A stretch of DNA of 58,821 nt from a virus: IMG/VR virus record IMGVR_UViG_3300037875_000261. The stretch is one strand, 5' to 3'. The position numbers were made by a program, and so were the translations under genes. Each line of letters starts with the position of its first letter. The first letter of the stretch is position 1. The notes beneath the pieces were generated by a model. That model was not told the origin of the DNA. It worked only from the letters and a program-made list of their open reading frames with translations, and did not search any database. Below, piece after piece: positions 5,796 to 45,518 of this stretch.

Positions 5796-6203
5796 TCAGG
5801 CCGAGACGTCCTGCTCGAAGCGCGCAACCCAGCCGACGACCTTGATCTTGTCGGCCACGGGGGGCTCGACGCCGATGGTGTAGGTGGCACCCGTCACGTC
5901 GCGGCGAAAGCGTTCGCCCTGCAAGACCCAAGCGTAGCCCTCGGGCGGCACGACGACCTTGACGGTCCCGTTCGTCTCCGCCCCGCCGCTGCCACCGATC
6001 GGATTCAAGACGATGTCGACCGTTCGTCGAACGGTGTCGATGTTGAACAGCTTGAGCGACACGGCGTCGATGTACTCGCGCCCGGCGATCGCGTGGGCGG
6101 GCACCTGATGAACAGCCGTGATCGCGCCGGTCGTGCTCAAGCTGAGAGGGAAACCATCCGGCGAACCGGACAGGGACTCGGTGACGACTTCTTGCTCGGC
6201 CAT
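5796..6203 (-). CDS. hypothetical tail-associated protein (135 aa)
   Basis: Complete ORF packed between the J-like gene and the fibre gene. Confidence 0.5.
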   Translation of the reverse strand: MAEQEVVTESLSGSPDGFPLSLSTTGAITAVHQVPAHAIAGREYIDAVSLKLFNIDTVRRTVDIVLNPIGGSGGAETNGTVKVVVPPEGYAWVLQGERFRRDVTGATYTIGVEPPVADKIKVVGWVARFEQDVSA

Positions 6204-6204
6204 A

Positions 6205-9200
6205 TCAGAAGCTCTCGTTCAGGAGGAAGCGACGCGCGCTCGTCATGTCGTGCAGAGTCGCGGCGATCACGCGAACGCGGGTGCGGAAGGAATGAATGCG
6301 AACGTCGTACGTCGTGTCGGGACGCGTGGCGACGATCCTGAACTGGATGTCGACGAACGAGTAGAGCCCCGGCTTGAACTCGCGCCAAGCCTGCCAGCCG
6401 TCGCTCGCTCCGGTCGTGTTGATCCGAGCCTCGATACCGATCGTCGCGTTCGCCGTCTCGTTCGGCAGCACATGCGTCGGGCCTTCCCACGTCGCGCGTA
6501 CCGCGAGCGGGTCGCCCCACATCCCGGAGGCCGCTCCCCAGTGGATCGGACTGATCTGCTCCGCCGCGACCGACGCCTCGACGTAGCAGCGGCGGGGCTG
6601 GCTCTTGTGATACGCGACGCGCGTGCCCGTCTCAGCCGTCGTGTACGTCGCGCTCACTCCCGCGCTGAACTCAAGCCACCCGTCGGCGTGACGTTGCAGA
6701 TTCGATAACGCGGGATCGCCCGTCGGCGGGGCGCTGTCGGTTTTCCACCCGTTCGCGTAGGTCGACCACTCATTGTCGCCGAACTCGCCGGGCCATCGAC
6801 TTGTGTCCGTCAGCACGTCGGGCGTGAACGTGATCGTCGCGTGCTCGCTGTACTGCCCGAGCGTATTGCGTGCGCGGAAGTACAGGTCACCGATCGACCA
6901 GTCACTCAGCGGCGGAGACTCCGATGTACCGGGCTGGGAAACGAACACCACCGGGGCCGCGATCCATCCGCCGCGCCTGATCTCGACGACGTATGTGTCG
7001 CGGTTCGCGGTCGCGGGGATCCCCCACGAATAGATGACCTGATCGCCCTGCATGTCGGCTGCGACGTTCGTCGGCACGTCGGGATACGGGCCGATCCCGA
7101 CGACCGTGTGCGTCGCGCGTCCGCAGTTGTCGGCGATCGCGAACGCCCCCCGATGCGTCACGGGCTGGATCGCGACGTCGATCGAGCTACCGGCGACGGC
7201 GGCGTCGAGCGGTACGCGCGCGCTGGTCGCGTTTCCTTCTACCGTGCGTGCGATCTCCCACTGCGCCCCGTCCTCTCGCGTGAGCACGTTCGTCCGCGCG
7301 TGATGCACGACCGTCGCCGGGTCGTGCGCCCACGAAACGAACAACACGGCGCGAACACCGCCGGGGATGGCGACGTATCTGTCGTCGGTCGTGACACCTC
7401 GCACGCGACCGGGCGTGACCCTGTCGTCGCCTGGGACGTCGTCGCCGCCGACGCCGCTCTGAATGAGTTCCGTGACGGTGATCGGGTCGACCACGTCGTC
7501 GACGTAGATCGACGCGTTGTACTCTATGAACTGAATGGACTTCGTCATGTCGACGAGCTGCTCGGTGCTAGTCACCTCGACGAGAAGCTCGTCGCCGTTC
7601 CTGACGAGGATGTACGCGTCGTCCTTGCTGGCCTTGGCGGGCAGCGCCGTCCAGCCGCCGGTCGTGTCAAGCGTGACGGTGGTTCCCGCCGCGTACGATC
7701 CGCCGCCCGTGGTCAGCTTCGCCTGATGACGGTGCGACGCCTCGCCGACTTGAATGAACAGATAGTATTCGGACACGCCGTCGATCACGAAGTCTCGATC
7801 GAGCGTGGCCGTCGTCGTGCTCGCCGCGTCAGACAGAATCCGACCGGATACGCCGCGAGGAACGATGTCGTGCGCGATGCGCGCGATGTCGCCGGGCTCG
7901 ACGGCGATCGAGTCGACGGCCATCTTGAAACGACCCTGCCTGATCAGGTCGTTGTTCACGTTCAGCGAGAAGTTCCCGTGACGGATGATCTGCGCCCGAT
8001 CCGTGACTCCCCAGACGAAGGTCTGATCCCTGCGCAGATCGACCAGCGACGCGGGGTTCTTGATCGACTTGTGATTCACGATCTCGATCGCGCGTTCGTG
8101 ACGGTCGTCGGCGTCGAGGAAGCCGATGTCGATCGAGTTGTCTCGCTGCTCCGGTCCCTCGTACTCGATCTCGAACGACCCCTTGATGTACGAGCCCATC
8201 CCGACCTCGACGTCGGGCGACCTCGGGTGCGAATACTTGACGGAGATCACCGAGCCACGCTGTACGGGAACCGCGCGACCGACCGCACATATCTCGATGA
8301 GCGCATCCCACGCCGTGCGAGTCTCGTCGAAGATGCCGTTGAGCGCGAAGCGGTGCTGGCCCGTCGTGTAGAACGCGCCATTCGCCTCGGCCTCGGGCGT
8401 GACGATTCCGTCGGCGATCAGGTACTCGGACCCGCTGACGAATTCTTCCCAGGGCTCCGTTTCGTCCGTGCGATCCCACCAGCACTTGACAACCCACTGG
8501 ACCGCCTCCTGCACGATGTCGTGAATCTCGTACCCCGTACCCTCGGGCGAGTCGAGATCATTCGTCAGAAGATCGACGCCGCTCGCGGGCCAGTTCTCAA
8601 GGCGCACGAATCCGCCGATCCTGAACTCCTCCGGCAGCACGTCGCCGAAGCGCGGCAGCCCGGTCGTCTGCGATATGCGCGCGATGTACATCCACAGCGC
8701 ACCGCGCACCTCACCAGTGACGGGGTCGGTCGCCTCGACGCCTTGGGAGAACCAGCGAATGTCGTCATGGATGTATTCGACGTTCGTCGTGTGCTCGACC
8801 TTCGGTCGCCCGTCCCACACGACCTCGTCGCAGTAGTCGGCCCACGCCCGGAACGCGAGCAGGTCGACGCGGTCGATGCTGTAGGTCGTGCCGAGCCCGT
8901 ACTCCTTCGACAAGATCAGGTCGAGCGCGCACCACGCCGGGTTCGACGAGTGACTGCGCGCGATCGTCGGCACCGCGATCGACTCGCCGTCCCAGACGGG
9001 GACCGCGCGACCCTTGAGCAAGAACGAAAGCTCGGGCTGCGTCGTGTTGAGCTGCTCGGTCGCGCGAATCTTCACGCCGACGAGCGTCGAGTTGGGATAC
9101 CGAAGCTCGACGTCGAGCACGCTGACCACCGCCTCGACCTCAACCTCGTCGACTGTCGACGCGTGCGTCGAGTCGACGTTCGTGCGAAGCGCCTCGACGA

Positions 9201-32650: not shown

Positions 32651-33295
32651 TCACCGCAACGTGTGAGCGCCATCATCGACGTCAGCATAACCCAACCCGG
32701 CGCGCTTCGCATTCGCCCGCATCCCGTCCTTGGCCTTCTCGACTAACTGGCGTACGCGCTCGCGAGTCACGACGCCGATGCAGTCGTCGTGCTTGATCGA
32801 CTCCAGCGTGCGTCCCATCACGATGTGCTCGTACGCCGCGTGCCGATGTCGCGGCTTCACGCCGTAGAACAGGCGGTCGATCATGTCGCGGAACTCGACG
32901 CCGTACGTCGTGTCTTCGAGATCGGCGTCGGGCTGCGCGACCGTCGCGAAGAAGTCGTCGCCCTCGTCGTCGCCACGATCGGGCGACGACACGCGCGCGG
33001 TCGCGTGGAACTGGTTGCCGCCCGGTGTCCCCGCCGCGTGTCGAATGAAGTCCCACACGGCACCGCGCACCTGCCAGTACGCGCACGTCGTCCACGCACC
33101 GCGCGCCGGATCCCATCGGTCCTTCGCGGCGATCAGCCCGACGCGACCTGCTTGCAGGAGGTCGTCGCGATCGAAGCAGACCCGATAGCGTTCGTGCAGC
33201 GCCCACGCGAAGAACTGATGCACGACGCGCTTCACGATCCGGTCGTGGTCGATCACGTCGATGTCGTCGGGGCGCGCCGGTCGCTTCGTCTTCAC
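32651..33295 (-). CDS. sigma-70-family RNA polymerase sigma factor with regions 2 and 4 only (214 aa)
   Basis: Region 2 DDLLQAGRVGLIAAKDRWDPARGAWTTCAYWQVRGAVWDFIR. Region 4.2 IGVVTRERVRQLVEKAKDGMR. The GTG start overlaps the terminase stop (GTGA). Confidence 0.8.
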   Translation of the reverse strand: MKTKRPARPDDIDVIDHDRIVKRVVHQFFAWALHERYRVCFDRDDLLQAGRVGLIAAKDRWDPARGAWTTCAYWQVRGAVWDFIRHAAGTPGGNQFHATARVSSPDRGDDEGDDFFATVAQPDADLEDTTYGVEFRDMIDRLFYGVKPRHRHAAYEHIVMGRTLESIKHDDCIGVVTRERVRQLVEKAKDGMRANAKRAGLGYADVDDGAHTLR

Positions 33296-35085
33296 AACGA
33301 TCTCGAACCGGGCAGGTACTTGCCCGTGCGCCTGTTCTTCTTCCACTGGCGCTGGGGCTGCCCGTGCGTCGTCTGCGCGGGTGCGCCCATCGTCGCGAAC
33401 ATGCCGTCGCTGTCGACCTCGCGGCAGAGCAGCATGAACATATCCCAGTCGTCGGGGGACCGCTTGTACCTCGCGCGTATGTCCTCCTTCTTCTCGATCG
33501 TAACCAGCGGGCCGAGCGGACCCATGTCGCGCTTGAACTCCGCCCACGTCGCCTGCTCCCAGACGTCGTGCATCTCCTCGGGCACGCGGAAGTATCCCTC
33601 CTGCAATCCGCGACGGACGACCCAGTGCATCTCGCCGCGCTGGTTCTTGAAGTACACGCCAGCCGTCAGGTCGCTGTACGAGCCCGACGGTCCAGCGCCG
33701 AAGTTCACGTCGTCGATCAGCACGCCACGCGACGCGAGGATGTCGCCGACGCCCACGATGCCCGAGCAGTCGACCGACGTGCGCTGCCCAGGTATCGGTC
33801 GACCGTCCCAGCGATCGGGGAACAGCTCCCCGAGTTCCTTGCCCCATCGAACGAGGCACGACGCGATCCACGTCGCGATCGTCACCTGCATCTCGCGGTC
33901 CTCCCTGTCAGCGCGGAACTCCTCCTTCGCGAGAAGCGTGCCGTCCCATCCGACGCCGCCGACACTCGGGTCGCCCGTCTCGCCGATGTCGAACGCCGCG
34001 CGCGGACCTCGCGGCCCCTCGGGATGGTTGCGGGTGATGAGCGCGGCTTCGAGGAACGCGCGCGGGCAGACCTTGTTCCTGCCGTCGCCGCGTCCGAACT
34101 GCCCGAGGTAGTCCGACAGGAACAGCGGGTCGGTCGGGTCGTACTTCTTCAGCGCGGCCTTGCGCGCTTCGAGCGACGTGATGTAGTACGGGATGTCGTC
34201 GAAGACCTCGTCGGCGGGGACCGGGTCGGGGAACATCTCCTCGGGGAACAGCGACAGCTTGATCGAGTGCCACTCGCTCCCCGGCTTGCACGCTCGAACG
34301 CTCCAGTGATCCTCGTCCATGCCCCTGAACGGGTTCATCACGGCGAGCACCTTGACGTTGCTCTTCGCGATCATGCCTTCGAGCATGCGCATAGATTCGT
34401 CGGGCACGCTCTCGGCCTCCTCGATCACAAGGAACAGCTCGCGGTCGCCCTTCACGTTGTCCATCGCCTCGATCCATTCGAGGTCTTCTTCGCTGAAGTC
34501 TTCGGCGTCCGCGTCACCGGGTACGACGAGCCCGCCGTGTCGACCCTTCATGAACTTCGGATTGTTCGACGCGATGCTGACGATCTTGTGCTCGTCGTCG
34601 AGACGCAGCGCGCGCATCGTGATCGTGTCCTTCCCCGTGACGCCTTGCAGGTGCGTGCTATCGGCTGCACCGCGCAACGTCCTCCAAGTCTCCGCGAGCG
34701 TGATGTCGCGCACCTGATCGAGCGTCGGGGCCGTGACGAGGATCGTCGACGGGCGCGTGTAGAAGAACGTCGGGATCGCGACAGCTCCCGCCGCGTGCGA
34801 CTTCGACGTACCGCGCGCACCGCGAACGATCGTGAGCTTGTTCGCGAAGACGCTGTTGATGATCGCGCGCTCGCCTTCCCATAGCGTGATGTTGCCCGTG
34901 CGCGCGTGCTTGTGCCCGAGATGCTCCTTCGCGAACTCAAGCTCGCGGCCCTGGTATTCCGTGTACCAGATCCGCTCGGGGTCTTCAGTCCTCCGCGCCG
35001 GTTCCAGCAGCTTCGGTATCCGCGAGCGTAAGGCGTCCCCCCATGCACTCTCGATCAATCTCGACGATCCCGCGCTCTGCGTCAT
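33292..35085 (-). CDS. terL: terminase large subunit (597 aa)
   Basis: Walker A-like GARGTSKS, Walker B-like LFLVIEEAE, and a C-terminal nuclease-sized domain. Position lies upstream of the portal block. Confidence 0.8.
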   Translation of the reverse strand: MTQSAGSSRLIESAWGDALRSRIPKLLEPARRTEDPERIWYTEYQGRELEFAKEHLGHKHARTGNITLWEGERAIINSVFANKLTIVRGARGTSKSHAAGAVAIPTFFYTRPSTILVTAPTLDQVRDITLAETWRTLRGAADSTHLQGVTGKDTITMRALRLDDEHKIVSIASNNPKFMKGRHGGLVVPGDADAEDFSEEDLEWIEAMDNVKGDRELFLVIEEAESVPDESMRMLEGMIAKSNVKVLAVMNPFRGMDEDHWSVRACKPGSEWHSIKLSLFPEEMFPDPVPADEVFDDIPYYITSLEARKAALKKYDPTDPLFLSDYLGQFGRGDGRNKVCPRAFLEAALITRNHPEGPRGPRAAFDIGETGDPSVGGVGWDGTLLAKEEFRADREDREMQVTIATWIASCLVRWGKELGELFPDRWDGRPIPGQRTSVDCSGIVGVGDILASRGVLIDDVNFGAGPSGSYSDLTAGVYFKNQRGEMHWVVRRGLQEGYFRVPEEMHDVWEQATWAEFKRDMGPLGPLVTIEKKEDIRARYKRSPDDWDMFMLLCREVDSDGMFATMGAPAQTTHGQPQRQWKKNRRTGKYLPGSRSL

Positions 35086-36213: not shown

Positions 36214-38523
36214 TTACCAGTCGTTCGCGCTCATGTCGCCCTTGAGGTTTCCAAGCGCGGTGAAGACGACGCCGAACGCTTGCCGATACGTCGCTGCCCC
36301 GTCGGTTCGCACGCCTTGAATGCTCTGACCGCCCGGCGTCGTGTCCGTCGCCAGTTCCCACGGGTCGGCGTCGCCCGTCGTCGATCCGTCTGCGTTGCGC
36401 AGCTTGTAGAACGCCCGCCCGTTCTGATCCGTGTGGCTGGCGGCGTTGCCCGTCGCGCCTGACGACGGCAGACCGTTCCGCTCGATCAGCTTGAACAGCC
36501 CGATGATGTCGCCCGATCCGGGCGGCGTGTACAGATCGTCCGTGACCCACATCGTCAGCGACCGCACCTTCGTATCGGATCCCTCGTCCTTCAGGTTCGT
36601 CGTCGTGTTCAGCGTCGGGTCGCCCGTCGGGATCACCAGTTCGGAGAACGACTGCTTGCGCCTCTCCGTGATCGAGTAGCTCGGCGCGTGCTTCCAGTCC
36701 GTGCGCCAGCTCGCGCCGACGCCCGGCTCGCTCGATGCGCCCGACGTGTGCGTCGTGCGCGCGACGTATATCTCGCCGTCTGCGCCCTTCGTGTGCGCGT
36801 TGATCGCGAAGGCCACGCCGCTCGCCCACGCGATCGCGTTGCCCATCCCGTGCTCGTAGTTCCAGTTCAGCGTCCGCATCGCCGGGAGCAGCGACGTGCC
36901 GTCGACCGGGCGACCGTCCGTCACGATGTCCGTCACCTTCGAGCCAGCGATCTCGATCAGCGTCTGGTGCAGATCGGGACCGAGATCGACGAGCGCGTCG
37001 CACTTGCGATTGTTGCCGCGCACGAACCGCACCGGCCCGTTGACGATCAGCGGAACGCGGATGCCCATCTCGTAGCACGACCGCTTGTACCTGCGCTGCC
37101 GACCGGCCTCGCCGTCCGCTCGCGCGTGATCGTGAACCGCCTCCATCGTCGCGCCGAACGTGCGAGCGAAGTCGCCCGCCGTCACAGCGCCGTCGGGATG
37201 GTCGGCGTCGTCGACCTCCGCGCCGTCGCGCATCGAGTCGATGATCTCTTGCGACGTGCCGTTGTCGCTGGTGATGATGAAGATCGTGTTGTCGCGCACC
37301 CCCGACGACATGCCGGTCAGGAACCGACCGAGATGCGTGTCGAACGACTCCAGCATCCCGCCGCTGATTCCCGCGAGCCATGACTCGTCGCTGTTCAGGA
37401 ACTCGGGCGTCGTGACGTCTGCGCGAGGCGCTCCGTCGTACCACGGCGAATGCACCGCGTTAGCCGGGCAGTACATGAAGAACGGCTTCGTCATGTCGCG
37501 CTTGTTCGCGCCGGTCCAGTTGCCCGTCCCCTCGCCGTTGTCGCCGTTGACGTAGTCGATCATCTCGTCGAACGTGCGCTTGATCAGCCACTGCGCCTCG
37601 CCGACGTTCTCCTCGATCACCTTCGTCGAGGTCGTCGTCTCCTTCGTGCATGACGTGTAGTTGTCGTAGCCTGTCGACCGACCCTCGAATACCGGCTGCC
37701 CCGGCTGAATGCCTGGGCTCGGCGAGCCCTTCGGGTTCTGCCACAGCACGAACCCTTTCTCGAACTGACCGACAGCCGTCGAGCCGTCCGTCGTCACGCC
37801 CGTGAAGATGTGCTCCCAGCCCGGCCCCTCGCTGCCGTCGAGCTTGCGCATCACCGTGTCGGGCGAGTCGTTCGTCGTCATCGTGTCGTCGCCCACGCCG
37901 AGGTGCCACTTGCCGAAGATCGACGTCTCGTATCCCTTCGCCTTCATGTGGCGGGCGATGCTGTACTCGTACTTGTGATCGGGGTCGCCGAGGAACTGAC
38001 CGCCCGCGCCGACGACGAGGGACTGGCCGGGAACGATCTTGCCGTCGGCGACCGTGTACTCGACCTGCCCGCCGATCACCCACGTCATGCCCGTACGCGA
38101 CGGGTAGCGTCCCGAGATGAACGACGCGCGCCACGGAGTGCAGACCGGCATCGCTCGCGCCTGCGAGAACACCACGCCCGACGACGCGAGCGAATGGATC
38201 GTCGGCGTGTACGGGTAGACCGCATCCGCCCCGCCGTCCTTGAGGTAGTCGCCCGACGTCCACGCGTTCTCGTCGACGGAGTTCGCGCCGTACCCGTTGC
38301 CGTATGTGTACAGCAGGTCGATGCCGATGTCGTCGAGCACGATCAGCACGACGTTCGGTCGCTCGCGGTTCGCGTCGGGGTACGTCGCGACAGTCGCGCC
38401 AACGCCGAGCGGCTTGGCGGCTGCGACCGTCGCGCCCTCCGCCTGCTGCACTGTCGCCGTCGGCTTCGCCCCCTCCGCGAACGGGAGCGGTGCGGGCGTC
38501 GGCGTCGTCGGTGTCGTGCTCAT
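36214..38523 (-). CDS. sulfatase (alkaline-phosphatase superfamily, Cys-type) with a long C-terminal extension (769 aa)
   Basis: Metal-site start VVLIVLDDIG. Formylglycine motif CTPWRASFISGRYPSRTG (C-x-P-x-R...G). No N-terminal signal peptide is visible. Confidence 0.75.
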   Translation of the reverse strand: MSTTPTTPTPAPLPFAEGAKPTATVQQAEGATVAAAKPLGVGATVATYPDANRERPNVVLIVLDDIGIDLLYTYGNGYGANSVDENAWTSGDYLKDGGADAVYPYTPTIHSLASSGVVFSQARAMPVCTPWRASFISGRYPSRTGMTWVIGGQVEYTVADGKIVPGQSLVVGAGGQFLGDPDHKYEYSIARHMKAKGYETSIFGKWHLGVGDDTMTTNDSPDTVMRKLDGSEGPGWEHIFTGVTTDGSTAVGQFEKGFVLWQNPKGSPSPGIQPGQPVFEGRSTGYDNYTSCTKETTTSTKVIEENVGEAQWLIKRTFDEMIDYVNGDNGEGTGNWTGANKRDMTKPFFMYCPANAVHSPWYDGAPRADVTTPEFLNSDESWLAGISGGMLESFDTHLGRFLTGMSSGVRDNTIFIITSDNGTSQEIIDSMRDGAEVDDADHPDGAVTAGDFARTFGATMEAVHDHARADGEAGRQRRYKRSCYEMGIRVPLIVNGPVRFVRGNNRKCDALVDLGPDLHQTLIEIAGSKVTDIVTDGRPVDGTSLLPAMRTLNWNYEHGMGNAIAWASGVAFAINAHTKGADGEIYVARTTHTSGASSEPGVGASWRTDWKHAPSYSITERRKQSFSELVIPTGDPTLNTTTNLKDEGSDTKVRSLTMWVTDDLYTPPGSGDIIGLFKLIERNGLPSSGATGNAASHTDQNGRAFYKLRNADGSTTGDADPWELATDTTPGGQSIQGVRTDGAATYRQAFGVVFTALGNLKGDMSANDW

Positions 38524-40194: not shown

Positions 40195-42627
40195 CTATTC
40201 GGTCCCCTGCCCCGGCCCCTCGATATGCCCGGCCTCGATCGCCTGCGCGAACTGGATCAGCTCGGCCCCGTTCTTCGGGTGTACCTGCCGGAAGCCCACG
40301 CCGTAGATCGTCTGGGCTGCCTCGTAGAGTTGCGCGTACGCCTGACGATCGCGGCGTGCGATCGCGATGCGCATGGCGAACGCGAACGAGTTGCCGCCCT
40401 GGAACGTCTCGGTGCCGACGTTGTAGTCGGGGAAGCGCGGCGACGTCGAGCCGTCTGGCGTCGGCCCGGTGGCCTCGGTCGGCTGTGGGTCGTACGCCGT
40501 CTCGCCGTCCCACGACGCGACGGCTGCCTGCGAGATGATGCCGAAGCGTTCGCGCCCCTTCGAGTCGACCTCGCCGTCGAGCCACCACGGGCCGTCGGGG
40601 TCGGTCATCGCGAGCATGGTCTTGAAGATCGTGTCGTGGCATGCGTTGACGAGATCGGTGTCGGTCGCGAACGCGCGAGCGAGCCCGCGTAGCCCGTGCT
40701 CACCGATGCGCACCTCGTACGCTTGACAGGCGCGGTGCTCGTTCTTGAATATCTTGTTCGCCTTGGCCGACCATGTGCATGTCGACGTCATCGCGTTGCC
40801 GACGACCTCGACCGCGTTCCGCGCGAAGTCCGCGAGAACGTCGCGGCGATCGTCACCGGGCCGAAGGAGCTGCGCTGCGGTCGCGACCGTGTCCCATAGC
40901 CAGCCGTCCTCGCGTCCCATCTGCGCTCCGGTGGCGGGGTCGGTCGTCGTATGCTCCTGAAGTCGAGCGAGTCGACCGTGCGGGTGGCCGTTCGTCCAGA
41001 GCGTGCCGCTGAACGCGTGCTCGATCAGCATGTCGATCGACGCTGCGTCGCCCGTCAGCCACGCGAGTTGCGCGCACTCGTTCGTGAATCGTCGGTCGTG
41101 CTGCCGGTCGTAGCTCTTGAACTTCTGGCCGTCGGGCATCGACCGATACGCCCCATCATCGTCGCCCTTCTCGCCGCCCGACAACTCGATCGCGATCTCG
41201 CTGTCCATTCCCGCTGACGTGATCGGGTTGCCGTCGTCGTCGACGTACAGGTCGCACTGCCGGTCGGCCTTCATGCGTTGCTTCAGACACGCGAGCTTGT
41301 AGCCGACGTGCGAGTCGAACCAGTCGGTGAAGTAGATGCCCTCGCCTCCGGTACCGCCGCCGTACTTCGGGCCGTACGGGTGAACGCCGCCAGCCTCGTC
41401 GGTCGTGATCGGGTACGCGTCGGCGAAGCCCGACGAGAGCACCGAGGAGAAGCGCGCGAGGTCAGCGCCGACGTTCGTCTGCACCGAGCCGATCGGCAGG
41501 CGGAACCCTTGCGCGAAGTACGCGTTCGTCGCGGTCCACGTCCACGACGCCGACTGGTTCTGGTCCTCGTTGTCGAGTACGTCGACTGTGTCGGGCTGCA
41601 CGGCGCAGAACGTCGGCAAGTTCGACGACTCGTCGTGGCCGTGTATCAGGGTGAAGCGACGAATGATCTGCGCGCCGGGCGGCATAACGGTTCCGGTCGC
41701 GCCGTCGATGATCGCGACGTACCTGACACCGCGCCACGCGATGGGCGACGGAAACTGCGGGGCGAGCGCGAGCCCGTCGGGGGCGATGGGCGACGGAAAC
41801 TGCGCGACGTCCCTGACACCGCGCCACGCGATGGGCGACGGAAACTGCGGGGCGAGCGCGAGCCCGTCGGGGGCGATGATGCTGACCGATACCGAATCGG
41901 CTCCGACTGCGTACCGCTCGATCTCGCCGCCGTCAGTTTGCCTCGATGCGTGTAGCAGGCGCACGACCATCTCGACCGAGCCGCTGCCCGACCACGCTGT
42001 CGTGTAGACCTTCGCGACGATACCGCCGCGCAGCTTGACGGTGTTCAGCATCGTCGCCGTATGCGAGCCGCGCGAGATGACGCGACCGCGCGCCGGGGAG
42101 AACGCGAACTCGTTCGGGCCGATGTGGCGGACGTACGAGGCAGACGACGCGGGGGTTCCAGCGACCGAGCACGCGAAGCGGAACTCGCCGCGCAGCGCCG
42201 ATGCGACGTTCGACGGCAGCCAGAAGCGCGGGCGTATGCCGCCGCGTTCCGCGATGCGCACCTCGTACGCGTCCGACTCGTCGAGGTCGCTGACTGTCCA
42301 GCGCACGACCGACGGCATCCCGTGCGCGTCGAAGACGACGGGCTGGATCTGCGCGAGCTTGTCGCCGACGTAGATGTCGATCAGGTTCTTGTGGAGTTGA
42401 ATGCGTCGGTGCATCGGCACCGGCAGCGTGCCGAAGGACGGGCCGCCGGGTCCGCCGCCGAGGATCGCGGCGACACTCGCCGCGCTGCGTTGCGTGAAGT
42501 TGTCGCCCTCGCCGTGCGGGATCTCGGGCGCGACGTCGCGCCCCGACTCGACGCGCGCGCCCGCGCCTTCCTCGCCTCGCCCGTGCTTATTCCAGAGGCT
42601 TCGTCGTGACGTCGTCGGATTCTGCAT
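40195..42627 (-). CDS. large unknown protein (about 810 aa) with a beta-rich N-terminal half and a helical C-terminal half
   Basis: Frame 40195..42882 trimmed to the ATG at 42627 (MQNPTTSRR...), preceded by GAAGGGCAATCGCATG. An alternative ATG lies at 42414. No family recognised. Confidence 0.55.
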   Translation of the reverse strand: MQNPTTSRRSLWNKHGRGEEGAGARVESGRDVAPEIPHGEGDNFTQRSAASVAAILGGGPGGPSFGTLPVPMHRRIQLHKNLIDIYVGDKLAQIQPVVFDAHGMPSVVRWTVSDLDESDAYEVRIAERGGIRPRFWLPSNVASALRGEFRFACSVAGTPASSASYVRHIGPNEFAFSPARGRVISRGSHTATMLNTVKLRGGIVAKVYTTAWSGSGSVEMVVRLLHASRQTDGGEIERYAVGADSVSVSIIAPDGLALAPQFPSPIAWRGVRDVAQFPSPIAPDGLALAPQFPSPIAWRGVRYVAIIDGATGTVMPPGAQIIRRFTLIHGHDESSNLPTFCAVQPDTVDVLDNEDQNQSASWTWTATNAYFAQGFRLPIGSVQTNVGADLARFSSVLSSGFADAYPITTDEAGGVHPYGPKYGGGTGGEGIYFTDWFDSHVGYKLACLKQRMKADRQCDLYVDDDGNPITSAGMDSEIAIELSGGEKGDDDGAYRSMPDGQKFKSYDRQHDRRFTNECAQLAWLTGDAASIDMLIEHAFSGTLWTNGHPHGRLARLQEHTTTDPATGAQMGREDGWLWDTVATAAQLLRPGDDRRDVLADFARNAVEVVGNAMTSTCTWSAKANKIFKNEHRACQAYEVRIGEHGLRGLARAFATDTDLVNACHDTIFKTMLAMTDPDGPWWLDGEVDSKGRERFGIISQAAVASWDGETAYDPQPTEATGPTPDGSTSPRFPDYNVGTETFQGGNSFAFAMRIAIARRDRQAYAQLYEAAQTIYGVGFRQVHPKNGAELIQFAQAIEAGHIEGPGQGTE
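41722..41878 (-). repeat. in-frame tandem duplication with a 90-nt period
   Basis: 41722-41788 and 41812-41878 are 67/67 identical. The protein reads APDGLALAPQFPSPIAWRGVR twice. Confidence 0.85.
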
Positions 42628-42940
42628 GCGATTGCCCTTCGCTTTTCGGTTTCGTGATGTTGACGGTCGCGGCCCATGTATAGCAGCCGCCGGGGATCGC
42701 ACGACGGTCGACGTGACCGCCATGCCATAGCTTCGAGAGTTCGACCTGAGTGCAGCCGAAGAGGTCGGCGGCTTGTACTGAGGTGAGCGCGCGACCGTCG
42801 TCGCGCATCGCTGCGAGCAGAACGCGCATGCGACGGGTGAGGTTCGCCTCGCGCTGCGCCGGTTGCTGTCGGCTCCAGCCAATCGGCGTGTTGTCCTCGC
42901 CGAAGAGGTTGCCGGTTGACGACGACCCGCTCACGCCCAC
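42587..42940 (-). CDS. HTH-containing small protein (up to 117 aa)
   Basis: ALTSVQAADLFGCTQVELSKL is HTH-like. It has a GTG start and an alternative internal ATG (MRVLLAAM). The 3' end overlaps the next gene by 41 nt. Confidence 0.4.
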   Translation of the reverse strand: MGVSGSSSTGNLFGEDNTPIGWSRQQPAQREANLTRRMRVLLAAMRDDGRALTSVQAADLFGCTQVELSKLWHGGHVDRRAIPGGCYTWAATVNITKPKSEGQSHAESDDVTTKPLE

Positions 42941-42980: not shown

Positions 42981-43247
42981 TCACCCCGAGATCTCCCTCA
43001 AGATCAGACCGCAAAGAACCACAGTCGCAACTCCGAGCAGCCACTTCAGTACCTGGGCTTGATACTCAAGCCTCTGAAGTACCTTTGACTGTCGCTCCAC
43101 AGACTCCTCCAGCTTCTCGAAGGAACTGATGAGGTGCGCGGTCTTTGTGCTGAGTTCGATCATTTCAATGTTCGCGACCATCACCTGATTCGACAGGTCG
43201 TGAGTCCTTTTTCTTAGAGCGTCCATCCACCTGCTGTCCTCTGCCAT
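42981..43247 (-). CDS. coiled-coil protein with a C-terminal TM segment (88 aa)
   Basis: Tail of frame 42981..43886 from the ATG at 43247. TM WLLGVATVVLCGLIL. The DNA is visibly more A/T-rich than its flanks. Confidence 0.5.
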   Translation of the reverse strand: MAEDSRWMDALRKRTHDLSNQVMVANIEMIELSTKTAHLISSFEKLEESVERQSKVLQRLEYQAQVLKWLLGVATVVLCGLILREISG

Positions 43248-43267
43248 AGGTGCCGATCCGATCTTGC

Positions 43268-43780
43268 TCACCCCTTGCGACCCCACGCGCCCTCGGTCGT
43301 CTGCGCGCTCTCGGGTTGCGGCACGCGGCGAGCGCGCCCGCTCGCGATGTCGACGAGCGCGCGACGCAGCGCGACCATACCGGCGGGGACCAGTCGCGAA
43401 TAGTAGAACGACCCCGGCGAGCCGAAGCTGGCGCGGTCGATCTCGACAATCTCCTGCTCGCAGATGTCGCCCATGTCGGGGTCGCGAAGGTCGCCCCAGA
43501 ACCACGTCGCGCCCGTGTACGCCTCGTCGCCGAAGTAGGTATGCCGAACGGCGTCCGGCCCCCTGTGTCGCGGGAGCAGCGACGGGTGCAGAATCAGCGT
43601 CCCGAGTTGTGGGGCCAGTAGCTCGCTGGCCGGGAGTATCCGAAGCAACGACGGCGCGATGGCGACGGTCGCCGTCTGCGGCGACGGGGCTTCGGGAATG
43701 CCGAGGTCGCGCAGCGCGTCCCTCGCGCCGACGTACGCGGGGTGACCGGGGTTCTTGGTCGGGTAGACGTACGCGTTCAT
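43268..43780 (-). CDS. formyltransferase-like protein, N-terminally truncated core (170 aa)
   Basis: ILHPSLLPRHRGPDAV matches the formyl_trans_N HxSLLPxxRG motif, and DPDMGDI matches the catalytic-Asp motif. The usual Asn two residues before the His is absent. The ATG overlaps the upstream TGA (ATGA). Confidence 0.55.
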   Translation of the reverse strand: MNAYVYPTKNPGHPAYVGARDALRDLGIPEAPSPQTATVAIAPSLLRILPASELLAPQLGTLILHPSLLPRHRGPDAVRHTYFGDEAYTGATWFWGDLRDPDMGDICEQEIVEIDRASFGSPGSFYYSRLVPAGMVALRRALVDIASGRARRVPQPESAQTTEGAWGRKG

Positions 43781-44931
43781 TTCTTCGCGGCCTCGATCCC
43801 GGCGGGGCCGTAGTAGCGGAATCCCTGGACGGCGCGAAAGTGCCCGCCGAAGCCCGCGTTGAAAGCCTGCGACCGCGCGTTCGCAATGTGGGAGGAGACG
43901 TACGACCTCGCCGACTTCACCTTGTTCGCCCCGTATAGCATGGCGGAAAGCTGACGCCATCTTCTGTCGCGGCGAAGCGCCGAGCATAGACCGGGGTGGC
44001 TGGTGTGGAAGATCGTCGTGACCCTTCGACCGGCGAGCCGTCCCCCCCCGTCCGCCTGCATCTGGCAGACGTGGTTCAGGAACTTCATCCCGACGCCCGC
44101 GCCCTGCCACTCGGGCATGACGACGAGGCGACATCCCCTGGCCTCGACCCTCCTGCCCCTGTTCTTCGTTCCGATGCCCATGAAGCACACGGGCTCGTCG
44201 TCCACGAATCCGCCGTAGCAATGGGCCGCAGGCATGATCGGCAGTTTCAGATAGTGATGCGGCTCAAAAAGCGGCCACAGCTTCCAGTCGACCTGCCGAA
44301 TCTCAAGCTCAAAAGCTGGCCTTCGCCGAAGTGACCCCCTTGCGAACTTCGCGGTGGCGGTATCGAAGATCCAGTCGGGTTCGAGCCAGTCCAGAATGTC
44401 GTAGTGGCAGGAGAGCAGGACGCACTTGCCGCCCGTTCGCCTCCACGCCTTGCCGAACGCGAGCGCGCCGAACTTCGCGACCTGTCGGTCGACGACCGAC
44501 GTGAACTCGTCGACGACGACGCGGTCGGGGGCCTCGGAGATCACCCTCGCGAGATCGGCCCTGAACTTCTCCCCGTTCGACAGGACCGCGTAAGGCCGCA
44601 GCCAAGTTGGTACCGACCCGAGCCCGACGGCGGACAGCGCGCCGGTCACGGCGTCGAAGTTTCCGGCGGGCGCGATCTCGTCGACGATGGGCGAGCCCGC
44701 GTTCCACGACCCCTCGTACATCGCGCCCTCGCCGAGAACCTGTCGACCCATGCTGGTCTTCCCCGAGCCCGACGGGCCGACGATGACGCCGAGCCCCCAG
44801 TCGTCGTCGTCGATGTCGAGCGACGCGTCGAGGCTAAAGTTCGCGCCGGACTCCACGTTGAACAGCGACTTCACGCGCGACGCCCGATAGGTATCGTAGT
44901 CCGCGCACTCGTTGCGCACGGAGATGTTCAC
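43777..44931 (-). CDS. ABC-type ATPase fused to a GNAT-like acyltransferase domain (384 aa)
   Basis: Walker A GPSGSGKT, ABC signature LSNGEKF, Walker B VVVDEF, H-loop CHYD. The C-terminal VVMPEWQGAGVG is the GNAT acyl-CoA loop (Q/RxxGxG/A). The GTG start overlaps the ParB stop. Confidence 0.65.
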   Translation of the reverse strand: MNISVRNECADYDTYRASRVKSLFNVESGANFSLDASLDIDDDDWGLGVIVGPSGSGKTSMGRQVLGEGAMYEGSWNAGSPIVDEIAPAGNFDAVTGALSAVGLGSVPTWLRPYAVLSNGEKFRADLARVISEAPDRVVVDEFTSVVDRQVAKFGALAFGKAWRRTGGKCVLLSCHYDILDWLEPDWIFDTATAKFARGSLRRRPAFELEIRQVDWKLWPLFEPHHYLKLPIMPAAHCYGGFVDDEPVCFMGIGTKNRGRRVEARGCRLVVMPEWQGAGVGMKFLNHVCQMQADGGGRLAGRRVTTIFHTSHPGLCSALRRDRRWRQLSAMLYGANKVKSARSYVSSHIANARSQAFNAGFGGHFRAVQGFRYYGPAGIEAAKK

Positions 44932-45518
44932 GTCGTCACCACCCGGCAGTCCCGACCGCCGTCGCGAAGCTCCGCGAACACCTTCTCCTGCTCGGCCTCG
45001 TCGGCGCAGATCACGATGACGCCGTACTGCTCAAGGTACTTGTCGTCGGGTACGTCGCCCGGCGGGTCGAGACTGTCCGACCCGCCGATCTTCATCAGCG
45101 CCAGATCGTCGACCGACCACCCGATCAGCAGATCCCCGTCGTCGTCGTCGCGCATGTCGAACAGGAAGTCGGGGAGAACGTCGCTATCCCAGGTCGCCAG
45201 TTCGGCGGTGCGGTTGTCGGCGATGGCGAACGCGGTCGCCTCGCGGTCGGACTCGTCGACGACGATCGCGGCGATCTCGGTCCAGCCCAGGTTCCTCGCG
45301 GCCTCAAGCCTTCCGCTCCCCGCGCGGACCACCATACCCCGCTTCTGAACGACGATCGGGCTGCGCTGCCCAAACTTCGACAGCGACGCCTCAATCGCGC
45401 CGATGTTGCGCTCGTTGTGCAGCCGCGCGTTCGCGGGGTCGGGAACCAGATCCCCGATCGGAACCGCCAGCGCCCTCAGGTCGCCGACGATACGCGCGGC
45501 GTTCTTCCTCGTCTCCAT
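44928..45518 (-). CDS. ParB-like nuclease-domain protein (196 aa)
   Basis: LVPDPANARLHNERNIGAIEASLSKFGQRSPIVV...GSGRLEAARNLGW is a typical ParB/Srx N-terminal domain. No methylase domain is attached. Confidence 0.7.
   Translation of the reverse strand: METRKNAARIVGDLRALAVPIGDLVPDPANARLHNERNIGAIEASLSKFGQRSPIVVQKRGMVVRAGSGRLEAARNLGWTEIAAIVVDESDREATAFAIADNRTAELATWDSDVLPDFLFDMRDDDDGDLLIGWSVDDLALMKIGGSDSLDPPGDVPDDKYLEQYGVIVICADEAEQEKVFAELRDGGRDCRVVTT

Follow-up and report, generated by a model that had tools for sequence, protein, structure and literature searches.

A recurrent phage cassette of an ABC-ATPase/GNAT fusion, a small adaptor or ParB-type protein and a minimal formyltransferase, possibly acting in nucleic acid acylation

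The window analysed here is a 58,821-nucleotide stretch of viral DNA (IMG/VR record IMGVR_UViG_3300037875_000261), the GC-rich (~65%) genome of a tailed phage, in which almost every gene lies on the minus strand. Within it three overlapping genes encode a protein with a ParB-type N-terminal domain (ParB_N), a fusion of an ABC-type ATPase with a GNAT acyl-CoA N-acyltransferase, and a small formyltransferase-like protein (Table 1). The three genes and all the motifs quoted from them in a sequence-only reading of the window were found on the minus strand where that reading had placed them. Of the overlaps that it had assigned to the trio, GTGA and ATGA indeed form the two internal junctions, but TGATG couples the upstream open reading frame (ORF) of a 115-amino-acid (aa) helix-turn-helix (HTH) protein to the ParB gene. 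Also the stop of the formyltransferase gene overlaps a possible GTG start (GTGA) of a downstream small ORF. Because these two ORFs overlap the ends of the trio, the coupled string may, judging from the gene junctions, hold five genes.

Table 1. Coordinates of the coupled genes and of the domains within their products (window positions).
Feature	Position	Strand	Basis
ParB_N protein, 196 aa	44928-45518	-	ORF translation
ParB_N domain (ParB/Srx, 'ParB-CTPase fold'), residues ~14-142	45093..45479	-	Pfam, PHROG, PADLOC
Adaptor mini-domain, residues ~158-196 of the ParB protein	44931..45047	-	phrog_28816 (4.8e-8), alignment
ABC-ATPase/GNAT fusion, 384 aa	43777-44931	-	ORF translation
ABC-type ATPase domain, residues 1-200 of the fusion	44332..44931	-	Pfam, motifs, Foldseek
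GNAT acyl-CoA N-acyltransferase domain, residues 201-384 of the fusion	43780..44331	-	AF2 model, Foldseek
Formyltransferase-like protein, 170 aa, minimal 10-formyl-THF dehydrogenase type	43268-43780	-	PF00551, family alignment, PDB matches
Upstream HTH protein, 115 aa	45518-45865	-	phrog_12540 (7e-6) and phrog_309, terminase small subunit (2.5e-3), both weak
Small ORF downstream, ~96 aa, C-terminal segment hydrophobic	42981-43271	-	ORF list

The fusion protein matched phrog_11143, a family of 'unknown function', from end to end (3.6e-143). Its N-terminal half belongs to the ABC ATPase superfamily (ABC_tran in Pfam, 25.9 bits with a cut-off of 25) and has all four motifs: Walker A (GPSGSGKT), the signature (LSNGEKF), Walker B (VVVDEF, including the catalytic Glu142) and the H-loop (CHYD, His176). 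All these catalytic motifs were invariant across 40 homologues. By sequence the GNAT assignment of the C-terminal half was weak, the Pfam families Acetyltransf_7/1 remaining below their gathering scores. The AlphaFold2 (AF2) model of the domain (pLDDT 83.6, pTM 0.78) was matched by Foldseek to many GNATs in the PDB with probability 1.0 and TM ~0.55, and judged from this model the half is a GNAT, as the sequence-only reading had proposed. The pyrophosphate-binding loop between beta4 and alpha3 (motif A) is present as VMPEWQGAGVG, of which WQGAGVG is invariant in the family. The domain is strongly basic (isoelectric point, pI, 10.5; net charge +17), and net charges of +15 to +17 with pI ~10 were found in both GC-rich and GC-poor members. 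Among the homologues, one protein of 715 aa (P0424) and probably another of 807 aa (P0449) carry an intein (Hint and LAGLIDADG homing endonuclease) that splits the ABC domain.

The neighbours of the fusion gene were surveyed in 80 IMG/VR loci with a close fusion homologue, which were dereplicated at 95% into 73 clusters. A formyltransferase gene was found downstream of the fusion in 62 of the 63 clusters with sufficient sequence and an adaptor, described below, upstream of it in 69 of 70, and in 31 of 61 clusters the adaptor was fused to ParB_N. This arrangement is far beyond chance, and the three genes form a recurring functional unit in unrelated phages, which bears out the earlier suggestion that the trio belongs together. 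The fusion has relatives in more than 7,800 clusters (90% identity); many are 65-70% identical to the window protein although they come from very different contigs, and a profile search of clusters at 50% identity gave 4,785 matches. The family is annotated only as 'ABC transporter' or hypothetical. Among the top 150 representative clusters there are several in which ParB_N and/or the adaptor is joined to ABC-GNAT in a single chain, and these fusions argue for a physical association of the ParB protein or adaptor with ABC-GNAT.

The same cassette occurs in Mu-like phages after the tail-fibre genes (phiE255 gp28-gp29-gp30 and Pseudomonas phage Komp_PAO1_1), in Porphyromonas phages at the genome end, and in the Gordonia phage Axumite (Sourvirus, gp1-gp3) directly before the terminase; the genes gp28-30 of phiE255 are missing in BcepMu. 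The neighbours of the cassette are likewise kept in prophages and metagenomic contigs. A scan of genome contigs with a generic Walker A pattern gave mostly unrelated matches and nine true relatives, adding planctomycete prophages with the order adaptor, ABC-GNAT, terminase. Usually the cassette stands at the start or end of late operons, beside terminase, portal or tail genes; in one locus (L008) it lies among head genes, between a MuF-like gene and a protease gene. The phages include lytic, temperate, Mu-like and jumbo ones, infecting Proteobacteria, Actinobacteria, Bacteroidetes, Firmicutes, Planctomycetes and spirochaetes. PADLOC detected no defence system, only the ParB_N part of a methyltransferase model and an ABC signature in 'mad3'. 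No description or prediction of the cassette was found in the literature, where an earlier computational mention may nevertheless exist.

According to the database names, the fusion could be an ABC transporter subunit or a metabolic 'moron' serving, for example, siderophore or peptide transport. Also phiE255 gp29 has been speculated to be a transporter (PMC2920897), and the gene table of phages LE3 and LE4 carries a 'putative ABC transporter' remark (PMC6078989). The best PDB matches of the ABC half in Foldseek were transporter-type nucleotide-binding domains, and its profile matches included EcfA, OpuCA and SufC. However, all matches of the fusion to the NCBIfam transporter models were far below the cut-offs, and no permease gene, binding-protein gene or transporter Pfam family was present in any annotated neighbourhood of the cassette, as expected from the sequence-only reading, which had noted an ABC ATPase with no transporter partner. 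Furthermore, in every case a GNAT is either joined to the ATPase or lies next to it, and the ATPase is linked with the adaptor and with putative donor-making enzymes. The frequent adjacency of terminase genes would rather agree with a partition or packaging device formed by ParB and the ATPase, but the cassette is found in lytic, temperate, Mu-like and jumbo phages and also away from terminase genes (in the window, after the tail genes of Mu-like phages and in L008), and its ParB protein has no HTH. Transport, partition and packaging are thus largely refuted by context and highly improbable. The names 'ABC iron siderophore transporter', 'EcfA2', 'FtsE-like' and others given to the fusion in many records are likely mis-annotations.

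The ParB_N domain of the first protein scored just under the Pfam gathering score (PF02195, 2.4e-5, 24.7 bits vs 26.3) and was clear in the PHROGs, both in phrog_620 (1.1e-32) and in phrog_498 (3e-28), which represents the N-terminus of phage DNA methyltransferases. It also matched the N-terminal region of the PADLOC MTase_II model (2.6e-17). The protein has the ParB/Srx N-terminal fold, its Box II (GxxR) being GSGR, and by its profile matches the domain is of the type fused to phage DNA methyltransferases. A canonical partition ParB was ruled out: the protein has 196 aa and no HTH parS-binding domain, and TIGR00180 gave 32.9 bits, within the N-domain only, against a cut-off of 58.45. No ParA partner was seen among the scanned ORFs of the window, where no search was aimed at ParA. 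The protein is very acidic (pI 4.4, net charge -16), as are ParB proteins of the cassettes (pI 4.1-4.5), and because of this acidity it probably regulates the enzyme instead of binding DNA.

The C-terminal ~40 residues of the ParB protein form the adaptor, with the pattern Y-x-EQYGVIV-C-DE-EQ...G-x-C-[KR]-VV (in fuller form YxEQYGVIVxCxDExEQ...GYxCKVV), for which Pfam has no family. The alignment showed this segment to be homologous to stand-alone proteins of 42-54 aa in Mu-like and Porphyromonas phages (phiE255 gp28, Komp_PAO1_1 and Porphyromonas small ORFs), the genes of which overlap the start of the fusion gene. The adaptor is the constant partner of the ABC-GNAT gene and ParB_N an optional addition. 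The sequence-only reading had counted ParB as a member of the trio; the domain is present in the window but dispensable in about half of the cassettes, and the 40-aa adaptor had been missed.

The third protein is a member of the Formyl_trans_N family (PF00551; 2.7e-12, 47.3 bits vs a cut-off of 26.1). It had been taken for a truncated core that lacks both the N-terminal Rossmann start and the catalytic Asn. It consists, however, of a catalytic core of ~135 residues preceded by a short N-terminal beta-alpha unit, and the motifs HPSLLPRHRG and DPDMGDI are in place. In the alignment of 42 family members His65, Pro66, Ser67, Asp102 and Gly104 were invariant and Asp105 nearly so. The Asn of PurN and Fmt, two places before the His, is indeed replaced, by Ile or Val in most of the 42 members. 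As the solved 10-formyl-tetrahydrofolate (10-formyl-THF) dehydrogenase sequences align with Ile at the same site (IIYHPS, an IxxHPS arrangement), the replacement is a family-wide trait and no mark of decay, the His-Ser-Asp triad being kept.

Among solved structures the hydrolase domain of 10-formyl-THF dehydrogenase was matched far better (E = 3e-36 with the family profile, 1.7e-16 with the window protein alone) than Fmt, ArnA or PurN. Methionyl-tRNA formyltransferase (Fmt) gave 1e-18 and 1e-7, respectively, and HypX 4e-16 with the profile, while its match to the window protein alone was below the cut-off used; also a sugar formyltransferase was among the matches of the family. Methionyl-tRNA formyltransferase was ruled out as an identity for the 170-aa protein, which has no C-terminal tRNA-binding domain and scored 40.9 bits with the Fmt equivalog TIGR00460 (cut-off 201.5). 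The homologue in Gordonia phage Axumite (L002, gene 3) has been deposited as 'tRNA-methyltransferase', which is likely a mis-annotation.

The dehydrogenase domain moves the formyl group from 10-formyl-THF to the thiol of 4'-phosphopantetheine by means of a His/Ser/Asp triad, and HypX's N-terminal domain has been proposed to make formyl-CoA in the same way (PMC6802093). Formylation of a thiol by the phage protein would follow from its nearness to these two domains. Since its closest solved relative formylates a thiol, and since a sister clade of cassettes has other enzymes in its place (below), the protein is probably a donor-making enzyme for the GNAT and not another transferase with bases as substrates. 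As a GNAT requires an acyl-CoA, a formyl-CoA maker encoded right after it would be the simple reading of the gene order.

In the sister clade, with ABC-GNAT proteins 35-40% identical to the present ones and more than 7,600 clusters at 90% identity, ABC-GNAT is followed by an aspartate decarboxylase (PanD; PF02261, 2e-33) and then a CoA-transferase of family III (PF02515), or on some contigs by the CoA-transferase alone. The Rhodococcus/Gordonia phage Jace has the ParB protein (gp85), ABC-GNAT (gp86, 37% identical to the window protein), PanD and a CoA-transferase of ~230 aa, and this arrangement of four genes is found again in many contigs, both metagenomic and viral. The product of aspartate decarboxylase is beta-alanine, which the CoA-transferase could convert to beta-alanyl-CoA, a step that we infer. 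As two unrelated modules would both lead to CoA thioesters, they strongly suggest that the variable accessory genes supply the acyl-CoA donor of the GNAT. The inspected cassettes of Firmicute phages (Streptococcus phage Javan464 and lactococcal phage P335) had no donor gene; they would use the abundant acetyl-CoA, in which case no such gene is expected.

Some further variants were observed. In Javan464 and P335 the annotation has one ORF for the ABC part and another for the GNAT part, and in Javan464 (L003) an ASCH (PUA-like) protein is encoded at 6122-6499 after the ParB, ABC and GNAT genes and before the terminase. Among the variant loci L100-L105 and L112 (IMG/VR), L094, L095, L111 and L120, one group has a second ABC-GNAT paralogue after PanD and the CoA-transferase, and in another group a second ParB_N gene directly after ABC-GNAT replaces the donor enzyme.

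The sequence-only reading had made the formyltransferase itself act on bases, which it probably does not do. In its full form this alternative has two separate transferases on the same nucleic acid, the GNAT acetylating a base from acetyl-CoA and the formyltransferase formylating a base amine or an amino-modified base from 10-formyl-THF. The catalytic motifs are intact in both domains, amine-acting formyltransferases (Fmt, ArnA, sugar N-formyltransferases) are among the PDB matches, and a formylated 7-deazaguanine derivative exists in phage DNA. Yet Fmt, ArnA and PurN are all far more distant from the protein than is the dehydrogenase domain, which formylates a thiol, and the protein lacks any substrate-binding extension. 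No amino-modified-base pathway was seen among the scanned ORFs of the window, and the PanD and CoA-transferase of the sister clade are incapable of acting on bases, though able to make an acyl-CoA. Two transferases working side by side are therefore unlikely. Formylation of 7-deazaguanine in the manner of DpdN was rejected as well, as the scanned window ORFs included no DpdA or Que genes and the cassette travels alone.

The analysis shows the domain identities, the intact catalytic motifs, the conservation of the cassette, its adaptor, its single-chain fusions, its alternative modules for the donor and the basic charge of the GNAT domain; from them we infer the formyl-CoA intermediate, the DNA target and the anti-restriction role. 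It is quite possible, if short of probable, that the trio is a self-contained mobile phage cassette which uses formyl-CoA of its own making and ATP to place acyl marks on nucleic acid, most likely on phage DNA. The small formyltransferase would transfer the formyl group from 10-formyl-tetrahydrofolate to the thiol of CoA, in parallel with the dehydrogenase hydrolase domain and HypX, and the GNAT domain would use the formyl-CoA to N-formylate an amino group of a polyanionic macromolecule; the most likely substrate would be the bases of replicated phage DNA before packaging. The ABC ATPase would dimerise on ATP and provide a mechanical step, such as clamping of the substrate or exposure of a base, comparable to the helicase-type ATPase of TmcA. 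The acidic ParB_N protein would dock through its C-terminal adaptor and activate or time the enzyme on double-stranded DNA, as in phage thymine dioxygenases. The likely benefit would be a phage DNA shielded from host nucleases.

DNA-modification genes (morons) commonly sit at the boundaries of late operons. The position of the cassette at such boundaries, the basic GNAT, the methyltransferase-type ParB_N and the precedent of a ParB-like activator (PMC13229309) together make DNA the best guess for the target. In that precedent, published in 2026, a phage ParB-like protein without a DNA-binding domain was required for a post-replicative thymine dioxygenase on double-stranded DNA, and mutations of its nucleoside-triphosphate-binding residues did not markedly impair the activation (PMC13229309). 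The nucleic-acid modification module of the sequence-only reading agrees with the basic GNAT and with this precedent, while the choice between DNA, RNA and protein and the role against restriction stay conjectural.

The target might instead be a DNA-associated protein of the host or phage (a nucleoid protein, a defence nuclease, a packaging or an ejected protein), with lysines or N-termini acylated or formylated by the cassette for host takeover or escape from defence. Many of the best fold matches of the GNAT are protein N-terminal acetyltransferases (RimI, Naa50, Naa60), the cassette is often inside packaging or head modules, as in L008, and the acidic ParB protein resembles a protein partner more than a DNA binder. 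Against this, a GNAT charge of +15 to +17 speaks for a substrate that is polyanionic, the spread across six host groups argues for a universal substrate instead of a specific host protein, and the partners known for this ParB_N type are DNA-modifying enzymes (PMC13229309). A protein target was accordingly regarded as improbable.

RNA was considered to be marginally less probable still. The cassette would then acylate bases of tRNA or rRNA as TmcA does (N4-acetylcytidine, ac4C), or block the amino group of aminoacyl-tRNA like the GNAT toxins AtaT and TacT, with translation control or resistance to anticodon nucleases as the outcome. A basic GNAT domain and the combination of ATPase and GNAT, which is the logic of TmcA/NAT10, would suit such a role; TmcA (2zpa) was ranked fourth among the PDB fold matches of the GNAT domain, and several sources annotate the formyltransferase as Met-tRNA formyltransferase. 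That annotation is contradicted by the missing tRNA-binding domain of Fmt and the TIGR00460 score given above, the ATPase is of the ABC type instead of the TmcA helicase type, and DNA is indicated both by the partner ParB_N and by the location in late operons or close to terminase genes.

The comparison with TmcA that the sequence-only reading had drawn is a fair analogy, as TmcA too has a P-loop ATPase fused to a GNAT that acts on an amine of a nucleic-acid base. The differences are nevertheless clear: the ATPase of the cassette is an ABC transporter-type domain and that of TmcA a RecD-like helicase module, the fusion has no PF05127 match and no tRNA-binding domain and its domain order is different, and the cassette is carried by phages and includes, besides the fusion, ParB and putative donor-synthesis proteins. 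That reading also named phage Mu Mom, a GNAT-fold protein that binds acetyl-CoA and modifies DNA adenine against restriction (PMC7261163). In Mu-like phages the cassette follows the tail-fibre genes and is preceded by a small overlapping ORF, as is Mom in Mu. Mom, however, has no ATPase, formyltransferase or ParB partner and no detectable sequence or profile similarity to the fusion, and the small ORF of the cassette encodes an adaptor protein, while Com carries the annotation of a regulator of Mom translation. Mom was also absent among the BFVD fold matches listed, which were generic viral GNATs and family members. The fusion thus resembles TmcA/NAT10 in functional logic only, would occupy the niche that Mom has in Mu, and is a member of neither the TmcA nor the Mom family.

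Of the known relatives of the partner proteins, the hydrolase domain of ALDH1L1 (10-formyl-THF dehydrogenase) shares with the phage formyltransferase the HPS...D residues as well as the Ile in place of the PurN/Fmt Asn, and HypX's N-terminal domain is among its matches, but the phage protein has no carrier, aldehyde dehydrogenase or enoyl-CoA-hydratase domain. The pairs of 5mYOX thymine dioxygenase and ParB (PMC13229309) resemble the cassette in having a short ParB-like protein without a DNA-binding domain beside a modifying enzyme that needs it, and the fusions of ParB_N with DNA methyltransferases in having the same type of ParB_N. In both of these the partner is a dioxygenase or methyltransferase, while in the cassette it is ABC-GNAT, and the C-terminal part of the ParB protein is an adaptor of 40 aa that can stand alone. 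As the sequence-only reading had supposed, the composition of the cassette is not represented among characterised systems, although the general kind, modification of phage nucleic acid by a GNAT, is known.

Several observations weigh against the proposed acylation of phage DNA. We know of no modified base from any cassette-carrying phage. A formyl group on the nitrogen of an exocyclic base amine is chemically rather unstable, so that a lasting mark in the virion is questionable, and protein or RNA may be the target instead. The link to DNA is indirect, as the ParB protein lacks a DNA-binding domain and is highly acidic; moreover, about half of the cassettes have no ParB_N, and the Arg of Box II is not kept in all cassette homologues. 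In the AF2 model of the full-length fusion the pTM was low (0.50), so that the relative placement of the domains is unreliable. TmcA is one among hundreds of GNAT fold matches, and a comparison of the GNAT-domain profile with Mu Mom detected no similarity (hhalign probability 0.3%). The phage formyltransferase has neither the OB-like subdomain of the dehydrogenase nor the CoA-binding C-domain of HypX, and its similarity to the dehydrogenase could reflect shared ancestry rather than a shared thiol acceptor. Finally, the neighbour counts were obtained with hidden Markov models built from a few sequences.

A more specific version of the same proposal, doubtful but worth stating, is that the ABC-ATPase-driven GNATs place N-acyl marks from self-made donors on the canonical DNA bases after replication: formyl in the present clade, beta-alanyl in the clade with PanD and CoA-transferase, and acetyl where no donor gene is present. 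Such marks would be a chemistry of DNA modification not known before and the first biological role of formyl-CoA as an acyl donor to a macromolecule. If nucleic acid acylation is true, thousands of phages and prophages in at least six bacterial phyla would mark nucleic acid by acylation with interchangeable, self-made donors, which would be a new chemical class of phage DNA modification. It would also account for a large family that at present is wrongly called 'ABC transporter' and give a new role to formyl-CoA and to the ParB fold. The enzymes might be of use in DNA labelling, and sequencing, restriction and CRISPR susceptibility of the phages carrying the cassette could be affected. The idea is directly testable, as isolated phages with the cassette exist (phiE255, Gordonia Axumite and relatives, Jace, P335 and LE3/LE4).

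As to the surroundings of the trio, the replication genes of the window (exonuclease, Sak4-like annealase, ERCC4 nuclease, helicase and primase) lie at 46-58 kb. They are followed in the gene order by the trio, several large proteins without assignment, and the portal, head and tape-measure genes. A 23-kb part of the window had no megablast match in 50,697 phage records and hence no annotated close relative. The upstream HTH protein may be small-terminase-like or regulatory, judging from its weak profile matches, and appears to belong to the context instead of being a conserved cassette member. The downstream small ORF had no PHROG or Pfam match and no homologues in the libraries searched, nor did a homologue of it stand beside the cassette in the other loci with inspected neighbours. 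The large terminase of the window was without confident identification, the candidate at 33292-35085 having no PHROG or PDB match. An 895-aa ORF at 40195-42882 (minus strand), without PHROG or Pfam matches, includes at 41713-41878 a tandem duplication of 90 bp, almost perfect (1.8 copies, 98% match), which repeats the peptide ...APDGLALAPQFPSPIAWRGVR.... Also on the minus strand, at 36214-38523, a 769-aa protein with a clear sulfatase domain (PF00884, 9.9e-27) is encoded, which is unusual for a phage.

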